DNA of 64,000 nt from an uncultured Planctomycetota bacterium. GTDB taxonomy: Bacteria; Planctomycetota; Planctomycetia; Isosphaerales; Isosphaeraceae. Positions within the stretch are counted from its first letter, which is position 1. Each line of letters starts with the position of its first letter. Positions 641 to 62,174 of the stretch are shown one piece after another. The notes under the pieces were generated by a model. It saw only the letters and a program-made list of their open reading frames with translations, was not told the DNA's origin and made no database searches. The position numbers were made by a program, and so were the translations under genes. Location of the stretch: assembly GCA_963823665.1 (NCBI GenBank), contig CAWGMQ010000003.1, forward strand, positions 1,216,001 through 1,280,000, in the 5' to 3' direction.

Positions 641-2404
641 TCCCACCTCCATGTTCAACCGTCCACTCCGAGCGACCACTTCGTTTTGTACATTCGTCTC
701 GCGCCCTTATCCCACAAGGACTACGGGAACGCACTCGCTCGTTCTCGATGGCGAGCCACGGCCCAAACTCGAAGCCAAAAACTCGCCCGCGAGCACGTCG
801 CTTTGATCCAAAATCGCCACGGCGCGGCCCGCGACGCGCTCCATCCCCAAATCCGGAGTCGGCCACCATCCGCAAGTGCAAATGGCAAAACGGCTTCGGT
901 CCATCCATGAGCTTTTAGCCCCCTGGCGCAAAATGATATCTTTTGATAGCAAGAATCGAAGAACTTCGCCTTCCTCCGACCGGTGCCGGCGAGCGACTCC
1001 CGCACTTGAATGACGGCACGGCAAAGCGACGGAGTCACTCTGCGCAATGCCAAATCTTGCCTGGCTTTCGGTTTTTCTCGCACCGCATTTACGCGTTGCA
1101 CTTTCTTGCACTCGATTGCACTACTTGCGTGAATTTCGCCGCTGTTCTCACGAAGAGTAGAAATCGACGAGGAGGTAGGAAAGCAAAGGGAGCCGCCCCA
1201 GGTCAGCGGCCCAGGCCCGTCGGCACGCCGTCGAAGGGCTCGTAAGGGACGAGTGCGAGTTCTGAAGTTCAATGCTCGAATGTCGCTCATGTGAGATGGA
1301 GATTGGACAACGCCTGTTTCGAATTCGGGATGGAATGAATGGGAGATTCGAGCCACGGACCAACCAGCATGGTCGTCCCGGCAACCCGCACCCTCGCGAC
1401 GCCGTCCAGTCCAGCCCCGCGCGTGCGACGCGCTTCCCCCTGATGATAATATGCGACGGGTTTGCGGCCCCGACAACATTTTGTAAGTGCTTTCTTATTC
1501 GACTAAAAACGCAAGTTCAAGCGAGCAAAAGAATTGACCACGGTTTCATGTCGATATGTTGAGCCCGTTCAACGCGCATTGAAAACTGCCCGGCGGAACA
1601 TTCCTGATCACTCAGTCGGTGCCTGGCCCTCGACGCGGGGCAATCATTTTGCGCAATGCGGCGAGCGCGCCGAAATTGTGCGAATTGTCGCCGTCAGAAT
1701 CTTCGAACACCGAGTCCCGGTCCGACACAACCCGCTCACCGCGACGGACGACATCATCTCCTTCGATCCGATCCGTTCGCATTCGTGCGGATAATCATGA
1801 TGTGATTGCATCATGTTGACCATCAAGCGATCAAGCCTCTCTCCAATTGACCTGGATTTTTTCGACGAAGCGGCACGCTCACCGCATCGTGAAGCCAAGA
1901 CTCTAATTAGGCAAGTTTGTCGGACGCGCGACTCCCTGATTTGCGCGAAAGAACTCAGCTTAGTCGCGCAAGCTGCCTCAAGACCGTCCGTGATTACTGT
2001 TGGAGGCGCGCGATTCCGACGCACGTGAGTTATGCAACAATTCTTAAACTATTCATTGAGCCGTGCAGACGGGCCATTGCAGGGTAACTTGACGAGACCA
2101 GGCGACGGCGTGCGCCGTCATTCTGCTGATTTGCAAAGGAGCGCGGGACTAGGCCAAGCCTGTTGTCACTTTACATGAGCGAACGGCTGCCAGCAATGAT
2201 TGCCGGGTCAAGCAGCGTCTGTTCGCACGCAAGATTTTGATGCTCTGATTTCTGATCCCGAGACATCGACGATGATCTCGGGCGCATTTCACCCAGATTC
2301 GATTGCGATTCTGCACAGAACGATCGTCCACGATTCGACGAACGCCGTCGATTGATTCAAGAGCCCGTCGACGTAGAGCCAGTTCGCTCCATGAGGTGCA
2401 CCCA

Positions 2405-14400: not shown

Positions 14401-16266
14401 ACCGTCAACTCGCTCCCCGCGATGACGACGTCCACAAGCATCACCGTCTCGGTCACCGGTTCCGATCCGGTACCCGCCGGCGGCACACCATCCGGTGTCG
14501 CATCATACGCCATCTACGACTCGACCAACGGTGGGGCCCTCACACTCTTCACGACCGTCCCAGCCTCCAACCCAACAACAACGTTCACCGCCCAGGCCGG
14601 GAACACCTACGGCTTCTACAGCGTCGCGACCGACAACGCCGGCAACATCCAGGCGACCCCCACCGCCGCGGAGGCAACCGTCCAGATCCTCCCTCCAATG
14701 AAAGTCGCCTCCGTTTCTTCCGTCACACCCAACCCGCGCAACAGCACGGTCTCCACCATCAATATCTCGCTGAGCGCGGCGATCACCGCCGGCTCCTTCA
14801 CAACCACCGCCCTGACGCTCACCGACAACGGCGGCCCTAACTTAATCACAAACGCCGTCACGATCAGCTTCGTCTCAGGCTCAACTTACCAGATCACTGG
14901 GCTCTCCAGCCTTACGAAGAGCGACGGCAACTACGTGATGACCGTCAATGCCGCCAACATCCTGGACACGTACGGCAACCCGGGCGCCGGCACCGCGTCG
15001 ACGTCATGGCTCATGGACACGACGCGCCCGACAAGCAAAGTCAATCCCCTCGCGCAGCGCGGCACAAGCCTGAGCTTCACGGTCTCCGCCGGCGGATCGG
15101 ATCCAAGCGGGCCAAACAACAGCCCGCCATCGGGCTTGGCATCCTTCGACATCTACGCCGCGATTAACGGTGGACCGTGGACGTTCTGGACCAACGTCCC
15201 TGCATCCCGCCCCTCGGCCACCTACACTGGCCAGAGCAACACGACGTACACGTTCTACAGCATCGCCCACGATCTGGCCGGAAACGTCGAGGTCAAGACG
15301 CCTCTGATCGAGGCGAGCACCTATCTTCCCGACCTGACGCCACCGGTGACGTCCGTCAACCGCTTGAACGGAACAAACCCCAGCTCGGTCAACTCCACGA
15401 CTGGCACCTTCACGCTTAACCTCACCGGCACGGACCAGGGTGGCAGCAACCTCGCGTACTTCGAAGTCTTCGTGTCAGTCGATTCCGGGCCGTACCACAT
15501 GGCCGCACCGCCCATACCCGCCGGCCCCGCAGACACCTCCGGAACCGTCCACGCCACGATCCCCTACCAGGCCCCCACCGACGGCGCCCAGCACACCTAC
15601 GCCTTCTACAGCATCGGCATCGACGGTGCCGGTAACACCCAGTCCGCCCCCACAAGTCCCAACCTCACCCTCCAAGAAACCTTCGCCACCCCATCCCAGC
15701 TCCAGACCACAAGCTTGATCGTCGAAGATGGCGCCGTCGAGCGTTCCTACATCCGCTACCTGCAAGTCGATTTCAACGAATCCGACACCCAGTCCGGTGG
15801 CCAGCTCACTCAGATCGTCAATTCCCTCAAGACGGCATCACCGGACATCCAGCTCTACCAGTACGACCTGAACGACGACGCATCGAGCAAGACAGCCGTG
15901 TCACTTTCCGGCGTGAGCGTCTCCCTGATCGACCACGCGATCGAGCTCGACTTCGGCGCAAACGGCCTGGGCGGCAGCCCCACCACGACGGCCGCCGACG
16001 GCTATTACGAGCTCGACATCAAGCTTCCGAGTGGAGCGACCGGAGTGCACAACTTCTTCCGCCTACTCGGCGACGTCACCGGCGATGGCACGGTAGACAA
16101 CAACGACCTGAACGAAATCGCCGCCGAAATCAATCTGTCGAACCCGACCGGGCTTGCACCGCTAGGCGCAGACGTGACCGGCGAAGGCACAATATCCGCG
16201 CTCGACCTGACGCTGGCAACCCGCGCCAAAGGCCACAAGCTAAAGTCCGGCCTCTTCCTCGGCTAA
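2405..16266 (+). CDS. Giant secreted RHS/YD-repeat surface protein (~4600 aa): LEPR-XLL-like export motif, 137-aa tandem repeats, Ig-like (Big), LamG-like, PPC-like, YD/RHS, SHDPNDK domain, FN3-like repeats, C-terminal dockerin-like region; two apparent +1 frameshifts
   Basis: ATG 2405 with GAGGTG upstream; motif EVLEDRTMLS. ORFs 2303-9850, 9360-14840 and 13957-16266 join seamlessly if one base is removed near 9311 (tcgaaacgcg) and one near 14108 (agcctccgtc). LamG signature (F.G.NDYV...W.G.IDDVQLW), many YxYD repeats, C-terminal GDVTGDG.VD..DL. Confidence 0.85.
2780..4880 (+). repeat. Five near-identical 411-bp (137-aa) intragenic tandem repeats, variant order A-A-B-A-B
   Basis: Near-identical antisense ORFs recur at 3022, 3433, 3844, 4255 and 4666 (period 411). 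Variant A reads ETTSPAATSTIVIAS, variant B reads ETASPASASTIVVAS. Confidence 0.95.
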
Positions 16267-16968: not shown

Positions 16969-17053
16969 TCGGTATACCTCGTTTCTCTTGCAATCTACCT
17001 ATCACTAGCGTAGCACCATGAAGCTGGACGAGGGAGGCGAATTCTGGACTGAC

Positions 17054-18433
17054 CTAAATCCCCTCACGAGATCTCAGAGTCGAATCAGCCCGAGTTGAAC
17101 CACTACTCTCAGATTCGCTGAAATGGGCCGTCGTCTCGAACCAGCCCGCCGAAAACAAGGCAGCGGTCTTCTGATGCTGGAGCAGCCGCCAGGCGTCCGG
17201 CAAATCGAGAACGCGAACGATCCGCGCATCCCGCCCTTCACGGGACCGGCAGACAAGAGATGCATGTTCCAGCACCGGCTTGCTCAGTCGAGCGAGCAGT
17301 TCCGGAGAATGCGTGGTGGCAACGACCTGAATACCCTTCTCCTTCACCTGAGTTTCTATCAGGTCGAGAAGCAGATTGAGGCGGCTCGGGTGGATTCCGC
17401 TCTCAAGCTCCTCGAAGAAATAGAAAGACGATGGATTCGGCCCTAGGAACGCCGCAAGAAACGCCAGGAACCTGAGCGTTCCATCGGAGGCCGAGGCAAA
17501 ACTCGTCTTTCGCCCGTTGCGTTCGACCATGGTGGCAGCGATCTTTCCGGATGGGCCTGCCGGAAACTCGAGGTCGACCACGTCCATCGACGTCAGCTCC
17601 TGGACCCAGGAAAGGAGATTCATCTTAGAAGCATGAGACGCACAAATCGCAAAGAGCGCCGAGCTCAGATTGCTTCCGTCGTCGCTCAACCGATCATGCC
17701 CAGGCAAAGACGGCTGGCAGAGTGCATCGAGCGACCAGTGAAAAAAACGGCAAGAACGATAAATGCTCAGCGCCTGATCCAGATCCTGGCTCACTTCTTT
17801 AAAATCAGCCACATGATCATGGAATCTCCTTGAGCGGCCGTGCCAGACCGCGGCATGGTCAGCCGGCATCTTCGCCGCAACCGCCATCTGGCCCAAAACT
17901 GGCAATCCGTTTGGAAAATAGAATTTTTGGAATGAATCAGTTGCAAGACCATACTCTCGGATCCTGACGACTTGATGCGTGCGATCTCTCACCTGGCTCG
18001 TAAAAATGCGGCCAAGCGCCCCGAACCCGAGCGACTCCGAACGGATTCTAGGAATTGACACTTTTCGATCGATTGCCACCTCGATGTGATAGTTTACAGT
18101 TTCCAGGCCAGACTCCAGTTCGCCAGAAAAGCCAATCATGTCAGCGGGGAGCGTGCTCTCGCCCGTGAGCGCAAATGAATTCTTGCCCGAGAAAGCGATC
18201 CCTTTGCAACCGCCTTTGATGCCTGCCCAGAGGCGCTGCCCGCCCTCCTCGATTTTGCCATCGATAGTCTCGGTCAGTTCGTAGGCCCGCCCAATTCCAT
18301 GCAAAAACCGAAACGCATCGCGAAGGTTGCTCTTACCCGACGCATTCGCCGCGATCAACACCGTGAACGGCCCAAGCTCGAGCTTGGCATCTTTGAAATT
18401 CTTGAATCGTTCCAATCGCAACGACTTGAACAT
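17054..18433 (-). CDS. ABC-type AAA family ATPase (AAA_15/AAA_21-like)
   Basis: MFKSLRLERFKNF start, Walker A AANASGKS, signature SDGTLRFL, Walker B FFEELESGIHP, H-loop TTHSP. Confidence 0.85.
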   Translation of the reverse strand: MFKSLRLERFKNFKDAKLELGPFTVLIAANASGKSNLRDAFRFLHGIGRAYELTETIDGKIEEGGQRLWAGIKGGCKGIAFSGKNSFALTGESTLPADMIGFSGELESGLETVNYHIEVAIDRKVSIPRIRSESLGFGALGRIFTSQVRDRTHQVVRIREYGLATDSFQKFYFPNGLPVLGQMAVAAKMPADHAAVWHGRSRRFHDHVADFKEVSQDLDQALSIYRSCRFFHWSLDALCQPSLPGHDRLSDDGSNLSSALFAICASHASKMNLLSWVQELTSMDVVDLEFPAGPSGKIAATMVERNGRKTSFASASDGTLRFLAFLAAFLGPNPSSFYFFEELESGIHPSRLNLLLDLIETQVKEKGIQVVATTHSPELLARLSKPVLEHASLVCRSREGRDARIVRVLDLPDAWRLLQHQKTAALFSAGWFETTAHFSESESSGSTRADSTLRSREGI

Positions 18434-18600
18434 CGGCCGGCTCCTCTCGATCGTTATCCGCATTGTATTCGGTGTGGCTCGGCCGAATGACGTAATGACA
18501 CAAGGAAACCCAAACGGTTCAGCCGGTTACACTTAAGTGACCGAAGCACCAATCGCCCGCAGAACTCACTCCCCGGTGCCCAAAACCCGCCCAAAGCAGC

Positions 18601-18629
18601 TTGAACCTCGCGCACCGCGCGGCTATGAT
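18601..18629 (+). promoter_or_regulatory. Sigma70-like promoter
   Basis: TTGAAC-17 bp-TATGAT. Confidence 0.6.
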
Positions 18630-18706
18630 TCTTACGGCACCCAAAAAAGCGGTGCCCTCACTTTCTCTCTGCCAAGCCAGCTCTCATACAGCACAGGAGG
18701 CCGGCG

Positions 18707-18829
18707 ATGTCTTCGATTTACTGCATGAGTGTGCCGTCGAGCCTGCATCGCGCGCCAGGGCGCCCTGAAGCCCCTGTCTCCGGGAAAACGCATCCTGCGT
18801 TCTCGGCGCGCGTCTCATTGACTGACTGA
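18707..18829 (+). CDS. Candidate 40-aa leader peptide (uORF) containing RAPG
   Basis: AGGAGG 6 nt before ATG 18707; MSSIYCMSVPSSLHRAPGRPEAPVSGKTHPAFSARVSLTD*. Confidence 0.45.
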   Translation: MSSIYCMSVPSSLHRAPGRPEAPVSGKTHPAFSARVSLTD

Positions 18830-18967
18830 CTGAACGAAGTCGCGTCGATCCAGGCTCACATCACGGCGGAACCGATCAAATGCGGTCCGAGCGGTCGGGC
18901 TGCGCGACGATGGGTGCCAGCCCCCCCATCGAAGAATCGATCTTCATTTGAAGGAATCGGTATCAGT

Positions 18968-19444
18968 ATGAGAGCAATCGAAAAATATCGAGGACCGTCC
19001 ATGGCCGAGGTCCATCGTTTCTGCGCCTCGCTCGGCGAGGAAGATGGTGAAGATCCCCATCTGGCGAAGCGGCGGCGGCCCAACAACAAGCGCGCCTCAT
19101 CAAACTCGGTCCCCGTCGCCCGGCTCGAGCGCAAGGCCTGCCAGCTCTGCCGCCAGGTGGCCGAAACCCTCGATGAAGTCCTGGCCGACTGTGGCGACGG
19201 CGTGCTGCGAGCGCTCCGGGTGGCGACCGTCGTGCCCTATCCAAACGCGTCGCGACTGCTCGTGACCGTCGCTCCGGTCGACGGCCGGCTCGCACCCGAG
19301 GCGGGACCGAAAGTCGTGCTGGACCATCTGGAAAAAGCCAGCGGTCACTTACGCCACGAAATCGCCGCGGCCGTCACCCGCAAACGCGCGCCGCTCATGT
19401 TGTACCGACTGGCCGAGCCCGCACTCGAGGGCGCTCAGTCATGA
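18968..19444 (+). CDS. Ribosome-binding factor A-like protein (RbfA paralogue)
   Basis: RbfA-like pattern: QVAETL...V.TV.P.P.ASRLLVTV...LEKASGHLRHEIAAAVTRKRAPLMLY. Confidence 0.7.
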   Translation: MRAIEKYRGPSMAEVHRFCASLGEEDGEDPHLAKRRRPNNKRASSNSVPVARLERKACQLCRQVAETLDEVLADCGDGVLRALRVATVVPYPNASRLLVTVAPVDGRLAPEAGPKVVLDHLEKASGHLRHEIAAAVTRKRAPLMLYRLAEPALEGAQS

Positions 19445-20244
19445 CCCGGCCAAGGGCCAGGATCCGGCCTGTCACCGTGATCCTCGTGCTCGCGATTCTG
19501 GTCCTCGGCGTTCTTGTCACGGTCCAGCAGCGCAGGGAGGCGCGGCTCAGGCAGGCCCTCGCGCTGTTCCGGAATCGGGCTCATCAAAGTATCTACAAAC
19601 GCCTCGACGGCCCGTCTCCGCCCATGGGCACTTCGCCAAGGCTATCGCTCAATTGGGGCGCCACCGCCCCGCTGGAGGAGGTGATCAGCCAGCTCAAGCT
19701 CTTCACCAACCGGAGAACCACGCGCTTGAGATCCAGCTTCCCGATTGAGGTCGACTTCGCCGGTCTGGCAGAGTCGGGTCAATCCCTCACCTCCCTCGTG
19801 CGGCTTCCCCCGGAGCCGAGCCAAATCCTATCTCTCGACGAATTCATGCATCACGTCCTCGAGCCGATGAATCTCGATTTCGAGATCAGGGATGGCGCCC
19901 TTTTCATCACCTCTCACGTGGCCGTGGAGCGTTCTCATGATCGCATTCTTAAGTTTCTCGACCAGCCGGTTTTGCTGACCTGGCCCGACGGAGCATCCCT
20001 TGACGATGTGATCGCAGCGGTCCGATCGAGCACCATGGGACCTGAATTCCCGCTCGGCCTGCCTATGTATCCGGATCCTTCCAGTGTGGACGACTCGGAC
20101 TTGAAGACGGTCGTCGCACCCGCACCGAAACAGAGTGTTCCCGTCTGGGAGCACCTGGTCCGCATTCTGTCGCCGCTGCGAATGAAATTTGAGCTCAGAA
20201 ACGGGGCCCTCGTCATCCTTTCGCGGCCGCGACGGGAAGAGTGA
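19441..20244 (+). CDS. Membrane-anchored hypothetical protein with two STN-like repeats
   Basis: N-terminal TM helix; two copies of 'L.W....PL.EVI...L..VL.P..L.FEIR.GAL.I'. Confidence 0.6.
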   Translation: MTRPRARIRPVTVILVLAILVLGVLVTVQQRREARLRQALALFRNRAHQSIYKRLDGPSPPMGTSPRLSLNWGATAPLEEVISQLKLFTNRRTTRLRSSFPIEVDFAGLAESGQSLTSLVRLPPEPSQILSLDEFMHHVLEPMNLDFEIRDGALFITSHVAVERSHDRILKFLDQPVLLTWPDGASLDDVIAAVRSSTMGPEFPLGLPMYPDPSSVDDSDLKTVVAPAPKQSVPVWEHLVRILSPLRMKFELRNGALVILSRPRREE

Positions 20245-20337
20245 CAGAAAATCCACGGCGGTCGCTCCGATTAAGTTTCAGGTGGTCGCACGGCTTCGAT
20301 GCGCTTTCCCGACAACGTACGCTGGAGTTCTCGCGAT

Positions 20338-20838
20338 ATGAAATCGGGCCCGCGGATACGACTCAGCTCGCTGCTTCTCCTGCTGGTGGTACTTGGCCTC
20401 TTTTTCTGTCTATTCCTTCAAAAACGCCGCGAAAGGGAGCTCCAGGCAGCGATCTTGCCTTACCGCGATCAGACCGCGGAAGCGATCTTCACCACCCTGG
20501 ATCAGCCACTCGCGTTGACCTATCCCGACGGAACACCGCTGCAGGATGCGTTGAAGAACATCAGGCTGTGCTCAACCGGACCGAAGCTGCCAGCAGGCTT
20601 ACAAATCTATGTGGATCCATTCGGCTTGGCGACAGCAAATAAGACAATGAAGTCGCCCGTCAAGAAGCCGCGGGACCAGAGCCTTACCCTCCGCGAACAT
20701 CTGTCTGAAGTCCTCAAGTCCCTGGGGCTCGGGTTCGCGATCAGGGGTCGAGGCCTGGTGATTACTTCAGAGGATGCCGTGCATCTTCAACCGGAAGACG
20801 ACCCATATCTCGGCTACCGCGACGTGCTGCAAAAGTAA
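20338..20838 (+). CDS. Membrane-anchored hypothetical protein, paralogue of the upstream gene (one STN-like repeat)
   Basis: TM helix plus QKRRERELQAA matching QQRREARLRQA; LDQPLALTYPDG matches LDQPVLLTWPDG. Confidence 0.6.
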   Translation: MKSGPRIRLSSLLLLLVVLGLFFCLFLQKRRERELQAAILPYRDQTAEAIFTTLDQPLALTYPDGTPLQDALKNIRLCSTGPKLPAGLQIYVDPFGLATANKTMKSPVKKPRDQSLTLREHLSEVLKSLGLGFAIRGRGLVITSEDAVHLQPEDDPYLGYRDVLQK

Positions 20839-45460: not shown

Positions 45461-47880
45461 GCCGGGTAAGGAGGTGACGTTACCGCCACCCCCTCCCCTC
45501 AGAACTGCACGTGAAAGTTTCCCTTCATGCAGCTCAAGCCTTCACGAACGCCCCTCGCAGGACGCGGCCGCTTTCGTCAGTCGTTCTTGGACATGGATCT
45601 GCCGATGACAGTTGGCATGCAACAACTCCAGGTTGTCGGCTGTGCCAGAACCGCCCCGGCTGCGCCAGATGCGATGGTGGAGATGCAAGTCTTCCTCTGC
45701 GATCCGCAGCGGTTGACCACAGACCACGCATCGTCCCTCTTGTTCCTTCCATAAGTATTCGATCCGACCCCGACCTGCCAGCGTTTGGCTCAGTTGCCAA
45801 CCCAGTCGTGCTTCCAGGTACAGTTCCCACTTCGGATCGTAGGGATTCACGTCGCTCCGGATCTTCACATAACGAATGATCTTCACTTTGGCTGCTTCCA
45901 TCAACTGGATCGGCCGGCCTTGGCCTTTCTGGTCAAACAGCGTACCGGTGAAGACCCAGTGGCGGTAACCGTCTTGCTGGAAGTATTTCTCCTTGATCCA
46001 CCTCCGGCCTTTGTTCTGGTGCCGTCGTCGACACCAACGCCACAATTTCTGGAAAATCCGGTGATCCACGTACGTAAAAGTGCGCTTGCTCGCCGCGTAA
46101 CGGTGGTACATGGTCCAGCCCTTGATCTGCTGATTCAAACGCCAGATCATCTCTCCTGCCGTTAGGCTGCCCGAGCCGTCGATCGTTTCCTGTATCTTGT
46201 TCAAGAACGTCTTCACGTTTCGCAAGGACGGCTTGGTGAACACCTTGCCGCAGCGATAGCGTCGCACATTCTGCCCCAAGAAATCGAAGCCATCCTCCAC
46301 ATGCGTGATCTGGGTTTTCTCGTGGGAAAGTTCCAAGCCGCGTTCCTTCAAGAAATGAGCCACGAGAGGTTGCACTTGGTCACGGAGGAGTTCCTTTGAG
46401 ATGCCCGTGATCAAGAAGTCATCCGCATAGCGGACCAGGTGGACTTTAAACTTCCGTTGTCGCCCGTGCTTCTCGGCGAACTGTTCCGCCAACAGCCGTT
46501 GCAGTCCATCCAGAGTCCAATTCGCCAGGACGGGTGAAATGATCCCGCCTTGAGGTGTTCCTTCCGTGGTGGCGAACCAGGCGTGCTTCTCCAGGAAACC
46601 CACTTTCAGCCATTGCCCGAGCAACTGCCGGTCCATGGGGACGTGCGTCAAGAGCCAGTCATGACTGATGCGATCAAAGCAAGCTTTGATGTCCCCTTCG
46701 AGAATCCATGCTGGACCGCTCCGATTACCCAAGACAATATGAGATTGTTCCAGGGCGTCGGCACAACGACGTTCCAGCCGAAAGCCATAGGAATGGCCGT
46801 CGGCTCGAGATTCCGCAATGGGATCGAGGCCTAGCAAGTATAATGCCTGCATGGCTCGATCTGACATGGTGGGAATTCCGAGAGGACGTCGCTTGCCGTT
46901 GCTTTTGGGAATGTACACCCGGCGGAGCGGTTGCGGTTGGTAACCGTGCCGACGCAGAGTGCTGAAAGCAGCCGACTTGGCTTCCGGTGTGTTCCAGAGA
47001 ACTCCGTCCACACCGGGAGTCTTCGCACCCGAATTACTGATGACTCGCAAAATGGCCAGGGCCCGGCCACTGAACGAGTGCGTGAGCAGATAAACCAGAG
47101 CCTTGACCTTATTCCATCTGCCCTCCGCAACAGCCTTCACGATACGCGCCTGGAGCCGACGGACTGTGCGCCAGACTTTCTTCCATTCGATGGAGTGCCA
47201 GTCGGGCGTAAGCTCGGGAGCCGCACCAGCAAGCATTTCTGCCGCCGACATATCTGCTTGTCTCCCTGAGTCGGTTGGCCAAGGTTCTCTCGTGACGGAA
47301 CACCTGAGGGAAGTCGGCACCGCTTTCGCGGTGAGGGGATGTCGTCCGTGGGAGGACTCACCCTCTATCCGATCGACTACCGAACGGCATTGGCTTGCTC
47401 CCTCATCCTCCACCCGCCGCCCCATCGGCGACGCCTTACGACGGTCCTACCCCGAAGGGAGGGCGACGGGCTTACCACGTTCCACGGATGAATCACGGAT
47501 GGTTTAGGCTCTGCCTCTCCGCCGGTGGCTCGGATGACGACGACAGGGGATGGGAAATCCCACTGTACCTGGCCACGTACCTTTTTGGTTCAAGCCTCTC
47601 AGCGCCTTTGGCTTGTTGGATCTCACGACGTTTATCGGCAGTTCACCTGGATTAGCCATGCCATCCACCCCTGGCCCCCGACCGCATTGGCGTTCGCAGT
47701 CGCCGGATTCCCTCACGGGATATCCAACCACCCGAAGGTGAGGTTACGTTGTCCCAAGAGCTTCGCACGGTCGGATTGCTCCGGCCGCACGTCCTGGTAG
47801 GGTTCCGGTGGTCGTACATCGGGTTATGTCCTGGTTGCAAATCCAGTCATAACAGACTCATCCGCAGCTTCGTTTCGCGA
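45461..47880 (-). mobile_element. Inner group II intron (CL-type with HNH endonuclease)
   Basis: 5' TCGCGAAACG at 47880; DV GAGCTGCATGAAGGGAAACTTTCACGTGCAGTTCT; DVI ends ACCCGGC at 45461; EBS1 and EBS2 match the flanking sequence. Confidence 0.9.
45542..47251 (-). CDS. ltrA: Group II intron reverse transcriptase/maturase with HNH endonuclease (inner intron)
   Basis: RVT_N (W..I.W...[11 protein letters not shown]), TPGVDG, RPLGIP, PQGG, YADD, C-terminal CVVC..HH..NL.LLH.NCH. Confidence 0.95.
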
Positions 47881-47927
47881 CTCCCACAGATCCGGGCTTG
47901 CCCAATTAAGGCACCCGGCTCGTCATG

Positions 47928-49278
47928 TCACTTGTTCGCTACGAGACGGCATACTGAGTGGATCGCAATCGCTGCCGGAAGCGGTTTATGCTTCAGGAAC
48001 CGAGCGAACCGTTCCCATGTCATCCGACGGCCGCGCCGCGGCGCGACAGCCAGTGCTGCCAGAGCCAGGTGGCACCACTGCGAAACCGTGACAACATTTT
48101 GGAGTTGCCGGTGATTCCGTAGTAGGCATAGTGGCCTAGCAGTTTCTGACCTAGTATCCGGTGCTGCACCTTGAGCGGTTGATGGCGATTTTGCGACACC
48201 AATCCGCCAACGTTCGCAGGCTGCGGCGAAATCGACTTTTGGACGTCTTGCGCTTCACCACCCAGCGACCCTGCCGGGAGCGACCCCAGTAATGGGTGAA
48301 CGCCAGCAGGTCGAAAGTCCCTGGTGGAGTTCGTGTGGGTCTGCCTTCCGGTTTGGGACGGTCCGATGGCCGCTCGAACGGCACCAGCCGCGTCTTGTCC
48401 GGGTGGATGGTCAAGCCGTACTTCTCAAAGCGTTTGGGCAACACATTCATCACACGCCGTGCGTCGGACTCGCATGAGAAGACCATGACGAAGTCGTCCG
48501 CATAGCGGATCAAGAACGATCTGCCCATCATCCGAGGCTGAACCTCCCGCTCGAACCACTCGTCCAGCACGTAGTGCAGGAAGATATTCGAAAGGATCGG
48601 GCTGATCACACCCCCTTGTGGCGACCCCATTTCGGGGTGCGTAACGCACCCGTTCTCGAAGACGCCCGCATTGAGCCATTTGCCGATGAGCCGGAGCAGC
48701 ACTCCGTCTCGCACCCGACGCTTGAGGAAGTCGCGTAGATGGCCGTGGTCAATCGTGTCAAAGAACTTACGAATGTCCACATCCACTACCCATCCGCCCT
48801 TCATGTTCATCGTCTGTTGCCACAGGCTCTCTGACGCAGTGTGTGCCGATCGCTCGGGCCGGAAGCCATGCGAGCAGTTCTTGAAGTCCTGCTCGTATAT
48901 CGCCTCCAGAACCATCACGACAGCACGCTGGAGCACTTTATCCTCGAAGGTCGGGATTCCCAGTGGCCGGGTTTCGGTCGCTGAGCCTGCCTTGGGGATA
49001 TGCACTCGCCGCACAGGCGGTGCGTGGTACGTACCGGACTTGGCTCGTTCCAGCAGCGACCGTAGGTTCGGGACCAGGTTCGCTGCGTAGGCCTCGCCAT
49101 CTTGTCCGTCTACGCCCACCGCCCCGTCTTGGCGGGTCCGGTAGTAAGCTGTGAGCAGCCAATCGAGGTCGATGAAGTGCCCCAGGGATGTGAATCCCAT
49201 CTCCGGGCTTCGCCGAGCGAGTTCCGCTATCCGTTGTTGTTTCGTGGACACGTCCACGGGTTCCGATGCACCCGCCAT
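47928..49278 (-). CDS. ltrA: Group II intron reverse transcriptase/maturase without En domain (outer intron); apparent frameshifts near 48190 and 48035
   Basis: GVDG, RPLGIPT, PQGG, YADD; continues in shifted frames as GHYAYYGITGN...WLSRR...TWERF...ANK*. Confidence 0.9.
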
Positions 49279-49869
49279 GTTTCCCTCCAACGGTTGTGTG
49301 ACATGGCGTCTCCTTCCCTCCACCGGGTCCCTCGGAGTGGTTCCCCGGCTTCAACGGTACTACGAGACGCTCCGACTCCCATCCGCCCCTTTCGCCGCAC
49401 TTCGTTGCCTTCGTGTGGCGATACCACCCTTGCGTCCTGTTCGCTCCCAGCGACCCGACGCGGGGTCGTGGGCCGGGGAGTTGGTATTCCGGATCCCGAG
49501 CCGGAAATGTCAGTGGAGACGGATGGGGCTCTCAGGTTCCCGAGCAACCCTCGCGTCCCTGCGCCATGTTCTTGGACCCCGGCAGGACCGAACACGCCAG
49601 GCCATTGCGGCGTGTCGACACGGCCCCCGCTTGTGTCTACAACGGAGGCTCCCACGATGAGTATTTCGGGGCTCGATAGCATGGCATGGAGACTCGCTGT
49701 CTACGCTTCGCAGTGAGGGTCACCCCTCCCCACGCAAGACTTGCTTCCGGCTGCCGGCCAGGCTCTGCCGGGCGGGATTCGTTAACCCGCAGGGTCGCGA
49801 TGAAAGGTTTCTGTGTTTCGAGGCACTTCCTCCTTTCTCGAGCTTTTCCTGACGCAAAGACACCCATCG

Positions 49870-50168
49870 TTTTGTCGAGGGCGTTGACTTCCTATCCACG
49901 GCGAATGATTTTTGACAGCTTGGAGATCCATCTCAGCCACCGGCCGACCCACCGATCCCGCCGAATCAAGGAAATGCGGCCGAACCCCGTTGCCGGGTGG
50001 GAACTGCGGCTCGGTGACTATCGGGTCCTCTATGATGTGGATGATCAGAGGCGCGTCGTCCAAGTCCAGGTCATCGGTGAGAAAGTCGGCAACCGACTCA
50101 TCGTGCAAGGCGAGGAGTATTCCGCCCATGAAAGTGATCGACCTGAACGAGGCGAAGGCGAATCTTGA
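49870..50168 (+). pseudogene. RelE/ParE-family toxin, 5'-truncated at the intron target motif
   Basis: IKEMRPNPVAGWELRLGDYRVLYDVD; no credible start after the AGACACCC motif. Confidence 0.7.
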
Positions 50169-50319
50169 GGGTTATGCCGAAGAGTGCCAACAATCGCCGG
50201 TGATTGTCACGATTGGAGGGATCCCGAAATTCGAGCTCGTCCCGATCCACACGGACGATCCCGAGTTCATCGACCGCCTGCTCGAAGAGAACGAGACGAG
50301 GGCCGCTCGAAAGATCTGA
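50128..50319 (+). CDS. Phd/YefM-like antitoxin (probably 3'-truncated)
   Basis: MKVIDLNEAKANL..YAE.....PVIVT..G.P..ELVP; overlaps the toxin end. Confidence 0.7.
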   Translation: MKVIDLNEAKANLEGYAEECQQSPVIVTIGGIPKFELVPIHTDDPEFIDRLLEENETRAARKI

Positions 50320-53664: not shown

Positions 53665-54552
53665 ATGACAAGCACGTTGACCGATAAGGACTGGGAGATC
53701 CTCCTGCGGCGCATCCCATTGGGCAAGTGCGTGCCGTTCCTGGGTGCCGGCGCGTGCTACGGTGCTCTGCCGCTCGGGGCCGAGATCGCGCGCGAATGGG
53801 CTGAGCGGTTCCACTATCCGATGCCGGACAACGGAGACCTGGTGCGGGTTTCGCAATTCCTGGCTGTGGAGTATGACCTGACCTACCCCAAGGAGCTGGT
53901 ACTCGAGCGTCTGGGCAGCGGGAAACCTCCGGACTTTCGGGCGGCCGATGAGCCCCACGGCGTGCTGGCTGACTTGCCGCTGCCGATCTACGTGACGACC
54001 AACTACGACGACTTCATGATGAAGGCCCTGGCGACCCGCTGGCGCGACCCGAAGCGGGAGTTCTGTCGCTGGAACGAGCTGATTCGCGAACAGCCGACAC
54101 TCTTCGACACGGAGCCGACCTACGAACCGACGGTCGCCAGACCACTGGTCTATCACATGCACGGGCATACTGACCCCAACTCGATCGTCCTGACCGAGGA
54201 CGACTACCTGACGTTCCTGGCGGCCATGCAGGACCCCAAGCTGCTGCCGGATGCTGTGCACAAGGCCATAGCCGGCTCCTCGTTGCTGTTTGTCGGCTAC
54301 CGGATGGCCGACTGGAACATCAGGGTGCTGCTTCAAGGATTGCGACGGCTCGGCCAGGGGCTCGCGGGAAAGGGCAACCTGAGCGTGATGGTGCTCGTCC
54401 CGCCCGATGGGCCGGACGGCACCCAGCAGAAAATGCAGGACTACCTCGACCGCTACTATGCGGCGATGGACATGCGGGTGTATTGGGGCACGGCTCGCCA
54501 GTTTTGCGCCGAGCTGGGTTCGCGCTGGAAACAGCGTCAACAGCCGGCTTGA
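53665..54552 (+). CDS. SIR2-like (SIR2_2) domain protein, catalytic motifs intact
   Basis: PFLGAG, YVTTNYD, YHMHG, LTEDDY, LLFVGY. Confidence 0.9.
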   Translation: MTSTLTDKDWEILLRRIPLGKCVPFLGAGACYGALPLGAEIAREWAERFHYPMPDNGDLVRVSQFLAVEYDLTYPKELVLERLGSGKPPDFRAADEPHGVLADLPLPIYVTTNYDDFMMKALATRWRDPKREFCRWNELIREQPTLFDTEPTYEPTVARPLVYHMHGHTDPNSIVLTEDDYLTFLAAMQDPKLLPDAVHKAIAGSSLLFVGYRMADWNIRVLLQGLRRLGQGLAGKGNLSVMVLVPPDGPDGTQQKMQDYLDRYYAAMDMRVYWGTARQFCAELGSRWKQRQQPA

Positions 54553-54615
54553 CGGCCCGACGCTCCCTTCAGGTCGATCTCACTGAAACTTCATCTCTTG
54601 ACGGAGGCTCAACCG

Positions 54616-55575
54616 ATGCCCGAAGCAACCCCCTCGCCGCCTGCAATCGTGTTGAGGCGTTCCGAGGCCCTCGATGACGAAGGGTGGAAAGTATTGCTCC
54701 GCAGAATCCACACTCAAAAGTGCACTCCCTTCCTGGGGCCCGAAACCTGTTTCGACTTCTCGATTCCCTCAGCCTCGGTGCTTGCCGGGGAATGGGCCGA
54801 CGAGCATGACTATCCGTTCGACGACCGGAACAACCTTCCGCGTGTCGCGCAGTTCGTCGCCTACCAGGCTCATCAGGGAATCATCGACGAGGTCAAGATG
54901 GATCTCGCCGAGAAGTTTCACGGCCTGAAAATGCCCGATTTCTCCCACCAGGAAGATCCTTATCGGATCCTGGCCAGCCTGCCGCTCTCCGTCTACATCA
55001 ACACCCATTACTTCGCGTTCATGTCCTATGCCTTGCTGGCTCAGCACAAAGAACCCCAGAAGGTCGTCTGCCGCTGGAATGACATGGAGGCCTCGGAGGA
55101 CGAACCCGGCCTGCCCGCCGCCTACGATCCCAAACCGGCTTGCCCTCTCGTGTTCCACATGTTCGGCCACGTGGCCGAACCTTCATCGCTGGTCCTGACG
55201 GAGGACGACTACCTCGACTTCCTGGTCCGCACATCGGACAAACAAGATTTAATTCCTCAATGCGTTCAGAACGCAATGAGGAACAATTCCCTGCTCTTTC
55301 TGGGTTACCAGACCAACGATCTGGACTTCCGCGTCATCCTCCGAAACCTCTCCCGGATCAGAAGGGACCCGAGGAAGAGCTCCAACTATACGATCCAGTT
55401 CGTCCACGTCAGCGATGACAAGGTCACGTCCGAGCAAATCGATCGGCTCAAAAGCTATTTCAAGGACTACAACAAGAGCATGGCGATCAGCGTCTACTGG
55501 GGAACCACGGGTGAGTTCATGACCGAGCTTCGCCAGCGGTGGGAGGTCTACTGTGTCAACAGCCAGGTTGCTTGA
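54616..55575 (+). CDS. SIR2-like domain protein, catalytically degenerate paralogue
   Basis: PFLGPE, YINTHYF, FHMFG, LTEDDY, LLFLGY; GGAGG ribosome-binding site. Confidence 0.85.
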   Translation: MPEATPSPPAIVLRRSEALDDEGWKVLLRRIHTQKCTPFLGPETCFDFSIPSASVLAGEWADEHDYPFDDRNNLPRVAQFVAYQAHQGIIDEVKMDLAEKFHGLKMPDFSHQEDPYRILASLPLSVYINTHYFAFMSYALLAQHKEPQKVVCRWNDMEASEDEPGLPAAYDPKPACPLVFHMFGHVAEPSSLVLTEDDYLDFLVRTSDKQDLIPQCVQNAMRNNSLLFLGYQTNDLDFRVILRNLSRIRRDPRKSSNYTIQFVHVSDDKVTSEQIDRLKSYFKDYNKSMAISVYWGTTGEFMTELRQRWEVYCVNSQVA

Positions 55576-58500
55576 GCCGGCCCCGCCCGAGTCCAGCCCG
55601 GCCGTCCCGGCGATCACCGAGGCTCCGTACGTCGGTCCCCGGCCTTTTCTCTCCGCCGACTGCGAGCGGTTCTTCGGTCGGGACCGCGAGGCCATCGACC
55701 TGAAGCACCGGGTCATGGCTCACCCGATCACGCTGCTCTACGCGATGTCCGGCGCGGGCAAGACCTCGCTGATCAACGCGAGGTTGGTCCCCGAGCTGAA
55801 GAGCCAGTCCTGCCACGTCCTGGATTCTGCCCGGGTGCAGGGCTCGTCATGGAAACTCGAGCCCGGGGGGATTCGCAACATCTACGTGTTTCACGCCGTG
55901 ATGAGCTGGCAGAGCCAGTGCGACGCGGGCACGGCCCGACGGCTCAAGGATCAGACTCTCAGCGAGGAGCTGGCGCCCAGGGCGAAGCGTGCTGATCTTG
56001 ATGACGCGCTTTTGATCGCGATCTTTGATCAGTTCGAAGACTCTTCACAGCATACCCCTCAAGATGGGGAGAGCGCCGGGGATTCTTCGAGCAGCTTTCC
56101 GACGCCCTGGAGTCGATCTCGAATCTCCGGGTGTTGCTCGCGATGCGCGAAGACTGGCTGGCGTCGCTCGATCCTTTCGCGAGCCTGGTGCCCGAGAACC
56201 TGCGGACGAGGTTTCGGCTCGAGCGGCTCCGTCGCGCGGCCGCCCTGGAAGCGGTCGTGAATCCGCTAGAGGGCACCGGACGGAAGTTCGCCCCCGGCGT
56301 CGCCGAGACGCTCATCGACAACCTCATGACCATTCGCGTCCGGCGTAGCCGCGATGCGTCGGGGGCCCGATCCGACAACGGCGATCCGGGTGTCCTGGGC
56401 ACGGATGGCGGTCTATCCGTCACGACCCTCGTTGTCCCAGGTTGCCAGCCCGAGTCAAACGACTACGTGGCCCAGTCTGAATATGTCGAGCCCGTCCAGA
56501 TGCAGGTCGTCTGCCAAACCCTCTGGTCCAATCTCGAGGCCGGCGAGACCGAGATCACGGCCGAGAACCTGGAACGGTGCGGCGACGTCAACCAGGCTCT
56601 GTCGCGGTTCTATGAAGATTGCGTCAAGCAAGCGTCCCGGTTGCCTGGAGTGCGCGAAGGAGACATTCGGCGCTGGTTCGACGAGCGGCTCATGACTCCG
56701 GCCGGGACGCGGGGGCTGGTGCTCCGGGAACCAGACAAAACGGGCGGCTTGGGCAACGACGCGGTCGACTTACTCGAGGGCTGCCATTTGATTCGAGGTG
56801 AGGACCGGGGCGGCGCGCGGTGGTACGAGCTATCGCACGACCGATTCATCGAACCCGTGCGGAATTCCAACCGCCACTGGCAGAGCACTCGTCCTGGCCA
56901 GGCGCTCTGGTTCGAGCTCAACCGTCGGGCCGCAGCCTGGGATGCCGCGCCGGCCGAGAAAAAGCCTTCCTTGTTGCTCAGTAAGGCCGACCTGGACAAG
57001 GCCGAAGCTTGGAGCAAGACCGATTCCGACGAGCTGGGCTTGAGCGACCGGCTCGCGCGATTGCTCGACGAAAGCCGAGACGCCATCGATCGGGCCGAGC
57101 TGGCTGATCGGCTCGAGGATGAGCGCCGGCAGGCGAGAGACAAAGCCCTCAGGATCCGAGTCCTCACCTGTGGAGCGGCTGCGCTCGCGTTACTGTCGGC
57201 GCTGGCGCTCGTCGGCTGGTGGACCGCGAACGAGAACAAGAAGAAAGCCGATCAGTTTGCATCGGAGAGGACGAACGAGGCAAAGGGCGCCCGCGAGCAG
57301 GAGGTCCGGGCCGAGAACGAAAAGAACAAGGCCATGGTCAGCCAGTGGGCCATGCAAGCGACGTTGCAGAAGGAACCTACGTCCGTCCTGGGCGACATCC
57401 AGAAGGTGATCAGAGTCGCCGAAACGGAAAAGTGGCCTCAGCTCGAGGATGGTACGCAGGACTCCATTCGGTATGCCCTCTCCCACCTCACCCACCGGAG
57501 CAAGCTCGGGCCGTACGCCGAGTCCGTCAACGAGGTCGTCTTTGCACCGCAGCGATGGGGTGACGCCCTCCGGGACGGAAGCACGAATCCCGTCGTCGCC
57601 GTCGGCGGCCGGGACGGACTGGTCGAGCTGTGGAGCGTGGGCGATTACGACAACCCCGAAGACGACAAGTCGCTCACGGTGATTCGCGTGCCGGCGCTCG
57701 CGGACCCAGGGAAGTCCGGACGGTGGGTCAACCGGATCGTGTTCGCTCCGGCGGGCCGGATGCTGGCATTCTGCACTGGCGATACCACGAGTTTGAATCC
57801 TGCGGACCGCGGCGGCGCCTGGGTCTGGACGGCGGCCGAGTCGCCCGACGGGAAAGGTGAGTTGCACGCGCTCGAAACCGCGGGCAATTCCGGACCTGTC
57901 GCTGACGTCGCGTTCAGTCCCAACGGCGCCTCGGTTGCCATCGCGGGTAGTCGAGCACTCGGCAGCGCAAGCAATCCTGCGGCCGATGGCGTCTGGAAGG
58001 GCGCCGTTCGAGTCTGCGAGGCAGCGACCGGGAAGCTGCTCCACGAATTCCCGCTCAAGGGCCCGGCCCGAAGCGTCATGTTCGACCATCAAGGTGAGCG
58101 ACTCGTCGCGGCGAGCGGGGATGCCAACGGCGATAACCACAACCTGCCGGGACAAGTGGTCGTCTACAAGCTGAGCACCGGAGCTCCCACACTGATGAAG
58201 GACTACGAACACCCCTCGGTCCGCGCCGTGTTCAGCCCCTACGGGAACGTGGTGGTCTCGGCGGGCGTCGACGGCGTCGGACGGGTATTCGACGCCGCGA
58301 AGGGCAACCTGATCGCGACGCTGGTCGGCCACTCGCAGCAAATCACCGCCCTCGATTTCAGCCACGACGGCACACTTCTGGTCACCGCCAGCGGTGACCG
58401 GACGGCGCGGGTCTGGGATCCCTCCTCTTGGTCCGGCTCTGGCGATGGGGCGTCGCCCTCCACGTGGTCGAGCCGGGTGACGTTGGTCGGGCACAAGTCG

Positions 58501-61071
58501 TCATTGCTTCACGCGGAGTTCAGCCCGGACAGCACCATCGTCCTCACCTCGAGCTCCGACCGCACGGCGCGCGTCTGGGATGCACAGACCGGAGAGTGCC
58601 TTGTCTCCCACGTCGGCCACGACGGCGCAGTCAACGTGGCCCGGTTCAGCTCCCGCGGATTCATCCTGGCGACCGCCGGCAGCGATAAGACCGCCCGTGT
58701 CTGGACGACGGGGCCAGTCGAGACGGCCCGGGGGATACTCGTCGGCCACGCGGCGGCGCTGCGCGACGTCGAGTTCTCGCCCAAACCCGGGAGCTGCCTG
58801 GCCCTGACAGCCGGGGCCGACGGCGTCGCGTTCCTCTGGGATGTCTCTGGACTGGACAAACCCGGGAAGATCGATCCCAAGCACCGCTACGCGCCCGGGA
58901 CAGCCCCCGCCGCGCTGACCGATCTTGCCTTTAGCCCCGACGGCGATCGCTTCGCAACGGCGAGCCTCGACGGCACGGTCAGGGTCTGGCTCCTCGACAG
59001 CGAGACCCCGCTCACGGTCATTCAACCCAAGGCTGGAGCGGCCCTCGGCGTGACTTTCAGCCCGAAGGGCACGTACTTGCTCACATCGTGGACCGACGGA
59101 AAGATCCGGCTCTATCGTCGTGACGGAGATGACTACAAGCTGGCCGCCGACCCATGGCCGGGCTCAGCGTTTCGGCTCACGCCGCACCTCTTCGACAAGG
59201 ATGAGCGGGTCGTGGTCACCCCCAACGCCGGTCTGCTCCGGGTCAAGGGTGAGACCGGAACGGTGCAGGTCTGGGACGTCGCGACCGGCGCTTGCGTCCA
59301 AACCCTGAAGGGGCCCGGCGGCCTCCTCGGGCCCGTATCCGACCTGGCCGTTCAACCCGAGAGCCGCTCCATCGCCGCCGCCATTGAGGGGCCCTCCGGA
59401 ACGGTCGTCGTCTGGGACGAGCACGGGCAACTGACCGCCTCGCCCTTGAGCCATCCCGGTGGGGTCGAGCGAGTGGCCTTCAGTCCTGACGGGAAGTCGC
59501 TGGCGACGGAAGCCGAAGACGGGATCGGGCGGATCTGGGACTGGCCCCTCCGTAGCGGCCAGAAGCCAACAGCCAGCCTTCCTGGTCTGACCGGGCCTTC
59601 ACCCGTGCTCGCCTTCAGCGAAGACGGGTCGCATATCGCGAGCGACGGCGGCTACCTGGCAACGGACACCGGCGCGTGCATCGCACAGGTCTGGCACCTA
59701 TCCGGCCAACCGCCGGCGGTAGGCCGGTCCACGACTTCATTAAGCGGCCCGCGCGATTCGGTGGTGGCGCTTTCTCTACGTCGCGCCGAGGTCGCCGAAG
59801 TGCTCACGATCAACCGCGAGAACCGCTTCCAGCGATGGGCGACCGACACCGGCGGCCCGCTTGGCTCTTGCCGCGGGCCATACCTGACTCCGACTGCAGC
59901 GGCCGTCAGCCCCGATGGGACCCTGGCCGTCGCCGGCTCCGCCCAGGGCGCACTGGTACTCTGGAAGACGGATACAGCTCGACTGGTGGCGGACATGGAC
60001 GGCCACACCGCGGGAATCACCAGTGTGTCGTTCAGCCGCGACGGCCGAAGCATATTGAGCAGCGGCCTCGACGGCAAGGCGTTCGTCTGGTCGGTGCCTG
60101 ACCGAGAAGCCCAGAAGCTCCAACTGCAAAACGCGAGTCTTGTACGCCTCTCGCCGCGCGCCACTTTCCCGCCCAACGGCAGTCCCGTAGCAACCACGGT
60201 CGCCTGCTTCCTTGACTCTCTTGGCCGCCAGGTCGTTACCGGCACCGGCGACCTCAAGCGCGAGCGATGGCAGCCCGAAAAAGAGATGGAGTCACAGGCG
60301 TTTGCCTACCGACTCGACCTCGCGAGCCCATTCCCTCAGCCCGAGAAGGTCGTGGCAGTGACCAAGCTGGAACGCGACAACGACGCGGAGGATGCTCCGC
60401 TGGGCGCGCTGGCGGTGGCCGTCAGCCCCAGTGGCTCCCTCGTCTTCGTGGCTTGCGGCGGTTCGGACCCCATCTTTGACCTCGTCCGGTCCGCAGACCC
60501 GTTCACCGGTAAACTCGACTCGAAGCCCTTCCTCGGCCACACCGACCCAATCCTCGACGTGGCGGTCAGCCCCGACGGAAAGCAAATAGCCACGGCGAGC
60601 GCAGACAACACCGCCCGCGTTTGGACGGTCGACCACTCCAAGGTCGTCGAGCTGCGGGGGCACTCCGGCGATGTCGCCTCGGTGGCATTCAGCCCTGAAA
60701 ATGAATTCGTCCTGACGGTGAGTCGCCAGGACGGCACAGCGCGGGTCTGGGACCGCAACGGAGGGGATCCCCTGTACGTCCTCGGGACCCGTCGAGCCGG
60801 GTTCAACAGCGCCACCCTGGACGATCCCCCCGGCCCGCGCCAGTACACTGACGACGTGGTCGCCGCCGCTTTCAGCTCCGACGGCAAGCTGCTGATCACG
60901 GCCCACGGCGACGGCAACGCCCGAGTCTACCGCTTGGAATTGTGCGGCGGGTTTGACGACCTGAAGGAAGTCGCTAAAAAACGGCGCGAGGGGTTCGAGG
61001 ATAAATCGCGAGTGGGCCAGAGCCATGCCCGAGACCGTCGAGCTGGTTCCGCGGACCCAACTTCTCGTTGA
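55553..61071 (+). CDS. nSTAND1-type NTPase-TM-WD40 repeat protein (NLR-like); one apparent frameshift at ~56040
   Basis: PYVGPRPF, FFGR, Walker A SGAGKTS, Walker B FDQFE(E)LFT restored by adding 1 base, AMRED, YELSHD, hydrophobic helix ~57160-57225, then many GH...FSPDG...ARVW repeats. Confidence 0.88.
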
Positions 61072-61149
61072 TCTGCCGGCGCCGAGCGCCTTTACTTGCG
61101 ATTCTGGCGAAGCGCGTAGGCTATTAGCTCCCGGCTGGACGCGAGCCCA

Positions 61150-61769
61150 ACCTTGCCATCCATTGGGTTCTCAGATTCAGGCAAAGAGGCGCGGATGGGC
61201 TGGCCGTCGGCCAGGCGAAAGGGACGGCCGGTCAGGTCGCGGATCTCGTGCGCCGGATCGAGGCCGAATCGCCAGTAGAGGGTGGCGGCGAGATCGCCGG
61301 GGGTGACGGCGTCGCTGTCGGGGTAAGCGCCCAGCCTGTCGCTCGTGCCGTAGGTGGTGCCGCCCCGAACACCGCCGCCGGCCTGGGATGATGCATGCTC
61401 CGGATGATCGCCACGCGATCCATCACCCGCGCCGTGAGAGGCATGTGCTCGCAGATCCGCAACCCCGGGACGCTGCTCGCAATCGAGCCGAAAGGACCGC
61501 GGACCTCCGCCGGAGCGTTCGGCTTCATGTCGTAGGTGTCGATGTGGCTGGGACCTCCGTAATAGAATATGAGGATGCACGAGCGGATCGGCGACGGCAC
61601 TGCGTGCCGGTCCGCCCAGCCCCGCGACGCCCTCCCTTCGGCCTCGGCGCGGAGCAGCGCGGGCAGTGTCAGGCCCAGCGAGCCGAACCCACCGATTCGA
61701 AGAACCTGGCGACGACTGACGCTTCGTTGGTGGGCGAGCGCCTCAAGGCGTTTTTGGTCGACTCGCATG
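61150..61769 (-). pseudogene. DUF1501-family protein with a large internal deletion
   Basis: Tat-like SRRQVL and GGPSHIDTYDMKP...IRSMHH fused out of frame directly to the C-terminal AGGGVRGG..YG.SD..GAYP. Confidence 0.8.
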
Positions 61770-62174
61770 TGAACGCCCCTTTGTTTTACCACCGCCGCAG
61801 GCACCAGGAGGGCAATTGCCGCGGAGAAGTTCCCCGTGCCGGGGGCCCGGACGGCCCGCGGGAAAGACCTGACCCTGATAAAAGGAATTATCGTCAATAA
61901 CAATCAAGCAATAGTATGATGCCGTAGACCGAGTCCACGAAGGTAACTGCCTGGGAAGCTCTCCTCTCCTGGCATTGGCCATCAAAGCGATAACGCCTCG
62001 ATTCTATTCGACTCTAAGCGATTGGGCGATGTGGAATACGTCCGACTTCTTCGACGAGGCCGTTCTCGACGTCGATGGCATCGTGAGCCGAAGGGAGCGG
62101 CACTGGTTGCCGCGCCGCCCTTGGATTCATTCGTCTCTGTCGTGTTCGCGCTGTGCAGGAGTCGAATCCGACGG

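Follow-up and report, generated by a model that had tools for sequence, protein, structure and literature searches.

The locus described here lies in a 64,000-nucleotide stretch of DNA (hereafter the window; assembly GCA_963823665.1, contig CAWGMQ010000003.1, positions 1,216,001 to 1,280,000) from an uncultured Planctomycetota bacterium of the Isosphaeraceae, whose genome is 16.5 Mb in size. At 53665-61071 of the window, three adjacent and co-oriented genes, all on the + strand, encode two SIR2 proteins, which we call SIR2a and SIR2b, and a STAND ATPase of the nSTAND1 clade. Their features are the following.

53665..54552, + strand: SIR2a, a stand-alone SIR2_2 sirtuin with intact GAG/TTNYD/HG, predicted effector cleaving nicotinamide adenine dinucleotide (NAD); member of the upstream-SIR2 clade of three-gene loci
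54616..55575, + strand: SIR2b, a pseudo-sirtuin (GPE/NTHYF/FG) under purifying selection, with a predicted ThsA/KomC-like fold; likely adaptor
55553..56038, + strand: nSTAND1 gene, 5′ part, with a PYVGP motif (55625-55639), Walker A and Walker B; N-terminal effector domain absent
56039..56040, + strand: break of the reading frame just behind Walker B, probably from an indel in the assembly
56041..61071, + strand: nSTAND1 gene, 3′ part, with the remaining AAA+/winged-helix region (to ~56850), a helical linker, a transmembrane (TM) segment and a WD40 array
57160..57216, + strand: the one predicted TM helix; 6 K/R precede it and 3 follow
57523..60930, + strand: about 20 WD40 repeats, a putative sensor; about three propellers, judging from repeat count and length

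SIR2b was taken to start at the ATG at 54616 (the open reading frame (ORF) finder opens it at TTG 54598), which leaves 63 nt after the stop of SIR2a, and the STAND gene starts at GTG 55553, overlapping the end of SIR2b by 23 nt. This is the tightly spaced arrangement, with second and third genes overlapping, that the initial annotation of this DNA had described. It had also taken the two SIR2 proteins for paralogues, the first alone with catalytic motifs, and both points hold. The two proteins match PF13289 (E 1e-27 for SIR2a, 3e-18 for SIR2b) and share 37% identity. SIR2a carries G27-A-G29, T111-T-N113-Y-D115 and H166-G, in place of which SIR2b (numbered in its 325-amino-acid frame) has G47-P-E49, N135-T-H137-Y-F139 and F189-G. 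Motifs of this type serve NAD binding and catalysis, and mutants of Avs5 and DSR2 in the equivalent N, D and H are inactive or weaker (PMC12931631, PMC10981675). SIR2a reads GAGAC, not the canonical GAGxS, and this Cys is common in its clade. With the PF13289 match and GAG, TTNxD and HG in place, SIR2a is likely a NAD-cleaving enzyme, as predicted from its motifs; SIR2b lacks the catalytic N, D and H as well as the P-loop GAG. An NCBIfam scan returned names for neither protein.

In sirtuins, the P-loop glycine is the place where pyrophosphate is bound. Among 30 orthologues of SIR2b (P0003-P0032) it is replaced by Glu in 26/26 covering the site, the catalytic Asn by His in 29/29 covered, and the catalytic His by Phe or Tyr in all 30. 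Retained catalytic residues in homologues, which the initial annotation had named as a mark of simple decay, were looked for, and substitutions fixed in 26-30 of the 30 orthologues were found instead. Pairwise ratios of nonsynonymous to synonymous substitution rates (dN/dS) against two metagenome copies were 0.15-0.18 for SIR2b, and 0.14 for SIR2a. An AlphaFold2 model of SIR2b (mean predicted local distance difference test score, 84) had ThsA and KomC as its best Foldseek matches and also matched DSR2 SIR2 domains. SIR2b has retained the LTEDDY and GY regions as well. Simple decay is ruled out by the fixed substitutions and the low dN/dS. Because the substitutions are fixed, dN/dS is 0.15-0.18 and the predicted fold is kept, SIR2b is, judging from its sequence and model, a maintained pseudo-enzyme and not a decaying gene.

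The third gene matches PF20703 (E 8e-16) from residue 25 of the protein onwards, so that it has no N-terminal effector domain and is the stand-alone STAND protein of the initial annotation. Walker A (SGAGKTS, 55748-55768) and Walker B (IAIFDQFE, 56015-56038) are present in an AAA+ region with winged helix, as in nSTAND1 NTPases, and the model of the intact STAND of a related locus, L016, resembles Orc/Cdc6-type AAA+ folds. A TM-like segment is found behind the NTPase in 107 of 117 STAND homologues, with a K/R excess before it in 92 of these 107. Because of this segment and of the charge excess on the NTPase side, a cytoplasmic ATPase and extracytoplasmic propellers are predicted.

In the window, the STAND gene is interrupted by a frameshift at about 56039-56040. 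The Walker B region, FDQFEE(L/M)F, lies in a single frame in 19 of the 24 closest homologues, many of which are 1,770-1,890 amino acids long. Since relatives with 72-91% identity are in frame at this site, and since similar frame switches occur at ~9.3, 14.0 and 36.9 kb of the window, the interruption is probably an assembly indel. Reads from four sequencing runs matched short identical pieces, none spanning 56012-56145. A real lesion inactivating this copy of a system that is functional elsewhere would agree with the presence of the frameshift in the assembly and with a DUF1501 remnant carrying an internal gap among the nearby genes. We judge it unlikely, however, given the relatives in frame, the other frame switches, the remainder of the STAND gene, which is open for 1,676 codons, and the intact state of both SIR2a and SIR2b.

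Of 452 relatives confirmed in a metagenome scan, the 80 most similar to SIR2b were used. Together with four genome regions, two plasmid-collection records and the window, they make up the locus set, in which 98 full-length SIR2 domains were scored, near-duplicates included and frameshift-broken copies left out (L008, L009, L061 and the second SIR2 of L011). The element following the 75 intact domains is an nSTAND1 gene in 58 cases, a second SIR2 in 11, a fused CHAT then SIR2 in one, and a contig end in 5 (one of these, in L029, is a divergently transcribed gene). Degenerate domains (23, two of which are nearly identical to intact genes and carry one change each) are followed by nSTAND1 in 20 cases and by a contig end in 3. 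All 11 SIR2s preceding another SIR2 are intact. Because 78 of the 98 domains stand directly before nSTAND1, the basic unit of the family is a SIR2 followed by an effector-less nSTAND1, and the trio is a minority variant of this two-gene module. The STAND tails vary between loci (WD40, TPR, pentapeptide, or unassigned).

At 50% identity the family comprises ~1,700 clusters (E up to 1e-30), and the source names of relatives include Acidobacteriota, Chloroflexota, KSB1, Poribacteria, Ensifer and Nonomuraea. It is distributed patchily, being present in 13 of 121 genomes from the bacterial family and in 3 of 401 from a sample of the phylum, the window's own genome included. In viral contigs, 7 pattern matches were obtained and none was confirmed. 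Elsewhere in the genome of the window (G000:C10:2173581-2174859), a distant further SIR2 stands before an nSTAND1-like gene.

Conservation of the active-inactive order, suggested for checking by the initial annotation, was found: intact SIR2, dead SIR2 and nSTAND1 follow each other in 14 loci (the window, L008-L012, L016, L017, L020, L021, L038, L092, L096 and L097; in L021 the first gene is cut by the contig end), though as the minority variant. In L015 an intact/dead pair is visible up to the contig end. A quick maximum-likelihood tree was built from 80 de-duplicated rows, 18 near-copies being dropped, with Shimodaira-Hasegawa-like approximate likelihood ratio test (SH-aLRT) support only. 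Of the 11 intact SIR2s that lie upstream or are divergent, ten form a single group (SH-aLRT 86), separate from a main dead clade of 12 rows (SH-aLRT 99), and degeneracy requires at least 5 changes. Because upstream and dead SIR2s fall into separate clades, and at least 5 changes are needed, the tree indicates that the pair is old and specialised, and that activity was lost more than once. The separate clades rule out, for most loci, that the pairs arose by repeated local duplication; the exception is L088, where the pair is a local duplication. No conserved fourth gene was seen in the flanks of the loci inspected for one.

Some observations on individual loci may be added. In L029 (319-2359) an intact SIR2 of the upstream clade is divergent from a dead SIR2-STAND operon. 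L008 and L009, both from G472, are two trio copies in one metagenome-assembled genome, and each is followed (~17000-20500) by a large gene which reads, by eye, as alpha/beta-hydrolase plus CHAT.

What accompanies dead SIR2s was examined in 148 cluster representatives obtained with a query built from dead SIR2s, 146 of which could be classified and 2 not. Degenerate domains made up 38 of 45 extended SIR2s and 41 of 101 stand-alone ones (Fisher p 7e-7, a value overstated by the dead-SIR2 query and the relatedness of the rows), the extensions including TIR, trypsin, CHAT, EAD7, EAD9 and nSTAND1. With an intact-SIR2 query, the 120 matches listed included 98 long non-STAND fusions, every one of them degenerate and most of them CHAT-SIR2. 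L013 and 9 of 18 later-fetched regions have a fused CHAT and dead SIR2 ahead of nSTAND1, and L090 has a TIR-dead SIR2 fusion in this place. Three natural SIR2-nSTAND1 fusions may be read-through artefacts, and were not counted as evidence. Dead SIR2s are thus usually accompanied by another effector, be it an upstream intact SIR2 or a fused CHAT, TIR or trypsin, or by an EAD adaptor domain. As catalysis is lost when another effector is present, while the place before the STAND gene is kept, the SIR2 domain there is most simply seen as an adaptor. In some proteins (P0134, P0149, P0179, P0185, P0272-P0290), a SIR2 of this clade is fused at the C-terminus of nSTAND1, sometimes with HEAT repeats in between, and is degenerate in 12 of 18.

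We then compared residues between three groups of SIR2s: 46 intact ones next to a STAND gene, 16 dead ones and 10 upstream ones. The catalytic positions are common to both intact groups, and the dead group has lost most of them. Five further positions, D207, V210, S213, R249 and Q267 of SIR2b, are common to both STAND-adjacent groups, intact or dead, and lost in the upstream group. Position 249 is basic in 46/46 STAND-adjacent intact and 16/16 dead proteins and Gln in 10/10 upstream ones, and two trios fetched later, L096 and L097, agree. Q267 is kept in 100% of the STAND-adjacent intact, 94% of the dead and 0% of the upstream proteins. This pattern would be expected if STAND-adjacent SIR2s shared a docking surface that SIR2a gave up, and is not proof of it.

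Building on the gene order, motif loss, purifying selection, separate upstream and STAND-adjacent clades and effector swapping on dead SIR2s, all of which are observed, we favour with moderate confidence a split module resembling NLRs (nucleotide-binding, leucine-rich-repeat receptors), with nSTAND1 as receptor, dead SIR2b as adaptor and SIR2a as NADase effector. We infer its contacts, signalling direction, topology, NADase activity and immune role as follows. A ligand would bind the WD40 propellers, probably outside the cytoplasm, upon which the predicted membrane-spanning nSTAND1 ATPase would oligomerise. SIR2b would dock on this ATPase as adaptor and seed the assembly of SIR2a through sirtuin-sirtuin contacts into an active NAD-cleaving oligomer; depletion of NAD would arrest or kill the cell. 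Docking and catalysis would both fall to the one SIR2 of two-gene loci, whereas the trio would divide them between two paralogues. Activation of SIR2 NADases by filament or ring assembly, or by binding of a separate ATPase, is documented for Thoeris, Avs5 (10.1101/2024.09.15.613165) and Sir2-HerA (PMC11514289). The split-NLR reading had been proposed in the initial annotation; its enzyme/pseudo-enzyme pair, gene order, stand-alone nSTAND1 and TM segment are borne out by the orthologues, loci, tree and dN/dS, and of its two suggestions for SIR2b, adaptor or inhibitor, the first is favoured.

Several points weigh against this interpretation. The upstream SIR2s form one clade, so that the residues they miss may reflect single events in a lineage and not a STAND-binding surface, and a contact face between SIR2 proteins would explain the same residues just as well. 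Across the wider family R249 is conserved less strictly, in 53 of 67 intact representatives and 53 of 81 degenerate ones. All that is left of the upstream SIR2 in one subclade of dead SIR2s is a remnant (L025/L084, L035/L037), and in L039, of the same subclade, none was seen within 1.36 kb; the dead SIR2 and STAND reading frames of these loci remain open. The CHAT-SIR2 proteins are probably related, so that their counts are not independent. Mildly degenerate SIR2s, with one motif changed, may still be active, because Avs5 works with NG replacing HG (PMC12931631). Lastly, the STAND gene of the window itself is frameshifted, the neighbours of the trio are not defence genes, and the window does not form a defence island.

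The last point bears on whether the same receptor-adaptor-enzyme wiring might work not in anti-phage defence but as a transmembrane switch for stress, contact or development, predator or kin sensing being examples. Such a role would suit a sensor predicted to be extracytoplasmic and the lack of confirmed relatives in viral contigs, and non-defence STAND clades are interspersed among defence clades (Lee et al.). We nevertheless find it rather unlikely, as the patchy presence, the swappable sensors (WD40, TPR, pentapeptide, unknown) and the toxic-type effectors (NADase, caspase-like, TIR) suit conflict systems. That SIR2b is an inhibitor, capping SIR2a in inactive hetero-oligomers until STAND activation removes it, is improbable. 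Paralogues at 37% identity could co-assemble, SIR2 activity depends on oligomer interfaces, and the pair is kept together in 14 loci; yet dead SIR2s of this clade, CHAT- or TIR-fused, precede nSTAND1 with no intact SIR2 to inhibit (L013, L090, L100-L106, L109, L110), dead SIR2s keep the residues of STAND-adjacent SIR2s, and the majority of loci, with intact SIR2 and STAND only (58 of 98 domains), need no inhibitor. Least probable of all is a nucleotide receptor relaying an ADP-ribose-type signal from SIR2a, or from a fused TIR elsewhere, to the STAND in the reverse direction: the kept fold, LTEDDY and GY regions and the common TIR-dead SIR2 fusions would permit it, but the pyrophosphate place is filled by Glu in every orthologue covered, CHAT, trypsin and EAD partners yield no nucleotide signal, and the STAND has no effector domain to take one.

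The locus was also compared with known systems. It resembles Avs5 (AVAST type 5) in joining a SIR2_2-type NADase, a STAND NTPase and a repeat sensor, activated by assembly (PMC12931631; 10.1101/2024.09.15.613165). Avs5, however, is a single protein whose N-terminal SIR2 is intact and whose sensor is cytoplasmic and TPR/SAMD9-like, whereas here there are three genes, SIR2 and STAND being separate, with nSTAND1, a predicted TM segment and WD40 repeats in place of the soluble sensor, and a conserved pseudo-SIR2; PADLOC gave no Avs match for the locus. The nSTAND1 counter-invader systems of Kaur et al. 2021 (PMC8195603) share the NTPase clade PF20703 and are likewise split, with effectors in trans. 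They couple through homotypic EAD (effector-associated) or death-like domains at the STAND N-terminus, for which the window protein, matching nSTAND1 from residue 25, has no counterpart, the dead SIR2 being the apparent adaptor. In the nSTAND1 neighbourhood file of that paper, none of 8 SIR2 places shows a SIR2-nSTAND1 operon. In Sir2-HerA (PMC11514289), a separately encoded SIR2 NADase is also activated by binding to an ATPase oligomer, but HerA is RecA-like, the system has no sensor repeats, TM helix or pseudo-SIR2, and the ATPase adjacent to our SIR2s is an nSTAND1.

Human FAM118A/FAM118B are two SIR2_2 paralogues that cooperate, probably in mixed filaments; both need intact active sites and have no STAND partner (PMC12700824), whereas in SIR2b N, D, H and the P-loop Gly are all gone. 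Thoeris ThsA shares the SIR2 fold and catalytic motifs and was the best PADLOC match (E 6e-15) and the top Foldseek match, but the match covers the SIR2 domain only, and the three genes hold no SLOG, TIR or Macro domain and are accompanied by no ThsB TIR gene. The receptor-adaptor-enzyme logic recalls animal NLR-ASC-caspase and Apaf-1 assemblies, with a WD40 sensor on a STAND NTPase (mentioned in PMC7159879). It is no more than an analogy: here the role of adaptor would fall to a pseudo-enzyme sharing the fold of its effector, and the receptor is a predicted membrane-spanning protein. No SIR2/pseudo-SIR2/nSTAND1 operon was found in the literature searched and the supplements of PMC8195603, PMC7159879 and PMC13581612, whose coverage was partial, so that a prior mention is possible. 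The locus is a real, conserved and apparently undescribed variant of NLR-like conflict systems.

Elsewhere in the window, a giant gene with Ig-like, laminin G, RHS and dockerin regions extends over three ORFs (2303-16266, + strand), the switches near 9.3 and 14.0 kb being probably assembly indels. Two adjacent ORFs for group II intron-type reverse transcriptases (45542-49323, - strand) comprise one with maturase and HNH and one that is truncated. Small overlapping ORFs at 49912-50319 and just upstream look, by eye, like a RelE/Phd-type toxin-antitoxin remnant, and the frames scanned gave no Pfam match at 1e-4. The DUF1501 remnant (61092-61903, - strand) matches profile positions 2-72 and 312-387 only, with an internal deletion.

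A change between enzymatic and adaptor function is known from TIR and death-fold domains. For TIR it has been noted (PMC12700824), and no report of it in sirtuins was found in the literature searched. Beyond the window, and more tentatively, the pseudo-sirtuin may be a general adaptor domain of widespread membrane-spanning bacterial NLRs, docking on the nSTAND1 ring and passing an extracytoplasmic signal to interchangeable effectors (sister sirtuin NADase, caspase-like CHAT, TIR, trypsin), in an inflammasome-like chain made from a dead copy of the very enzyme to be activated. With enzyme and dead paralogue side by side, and R249, Q267, D207, V210 and S213 as candidates separating docking from catalysis, the idea is directly testable. 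If true, NLR-like sensing in bacteria would also reach through the membrane, and this in a family of ~1,700 clusters.

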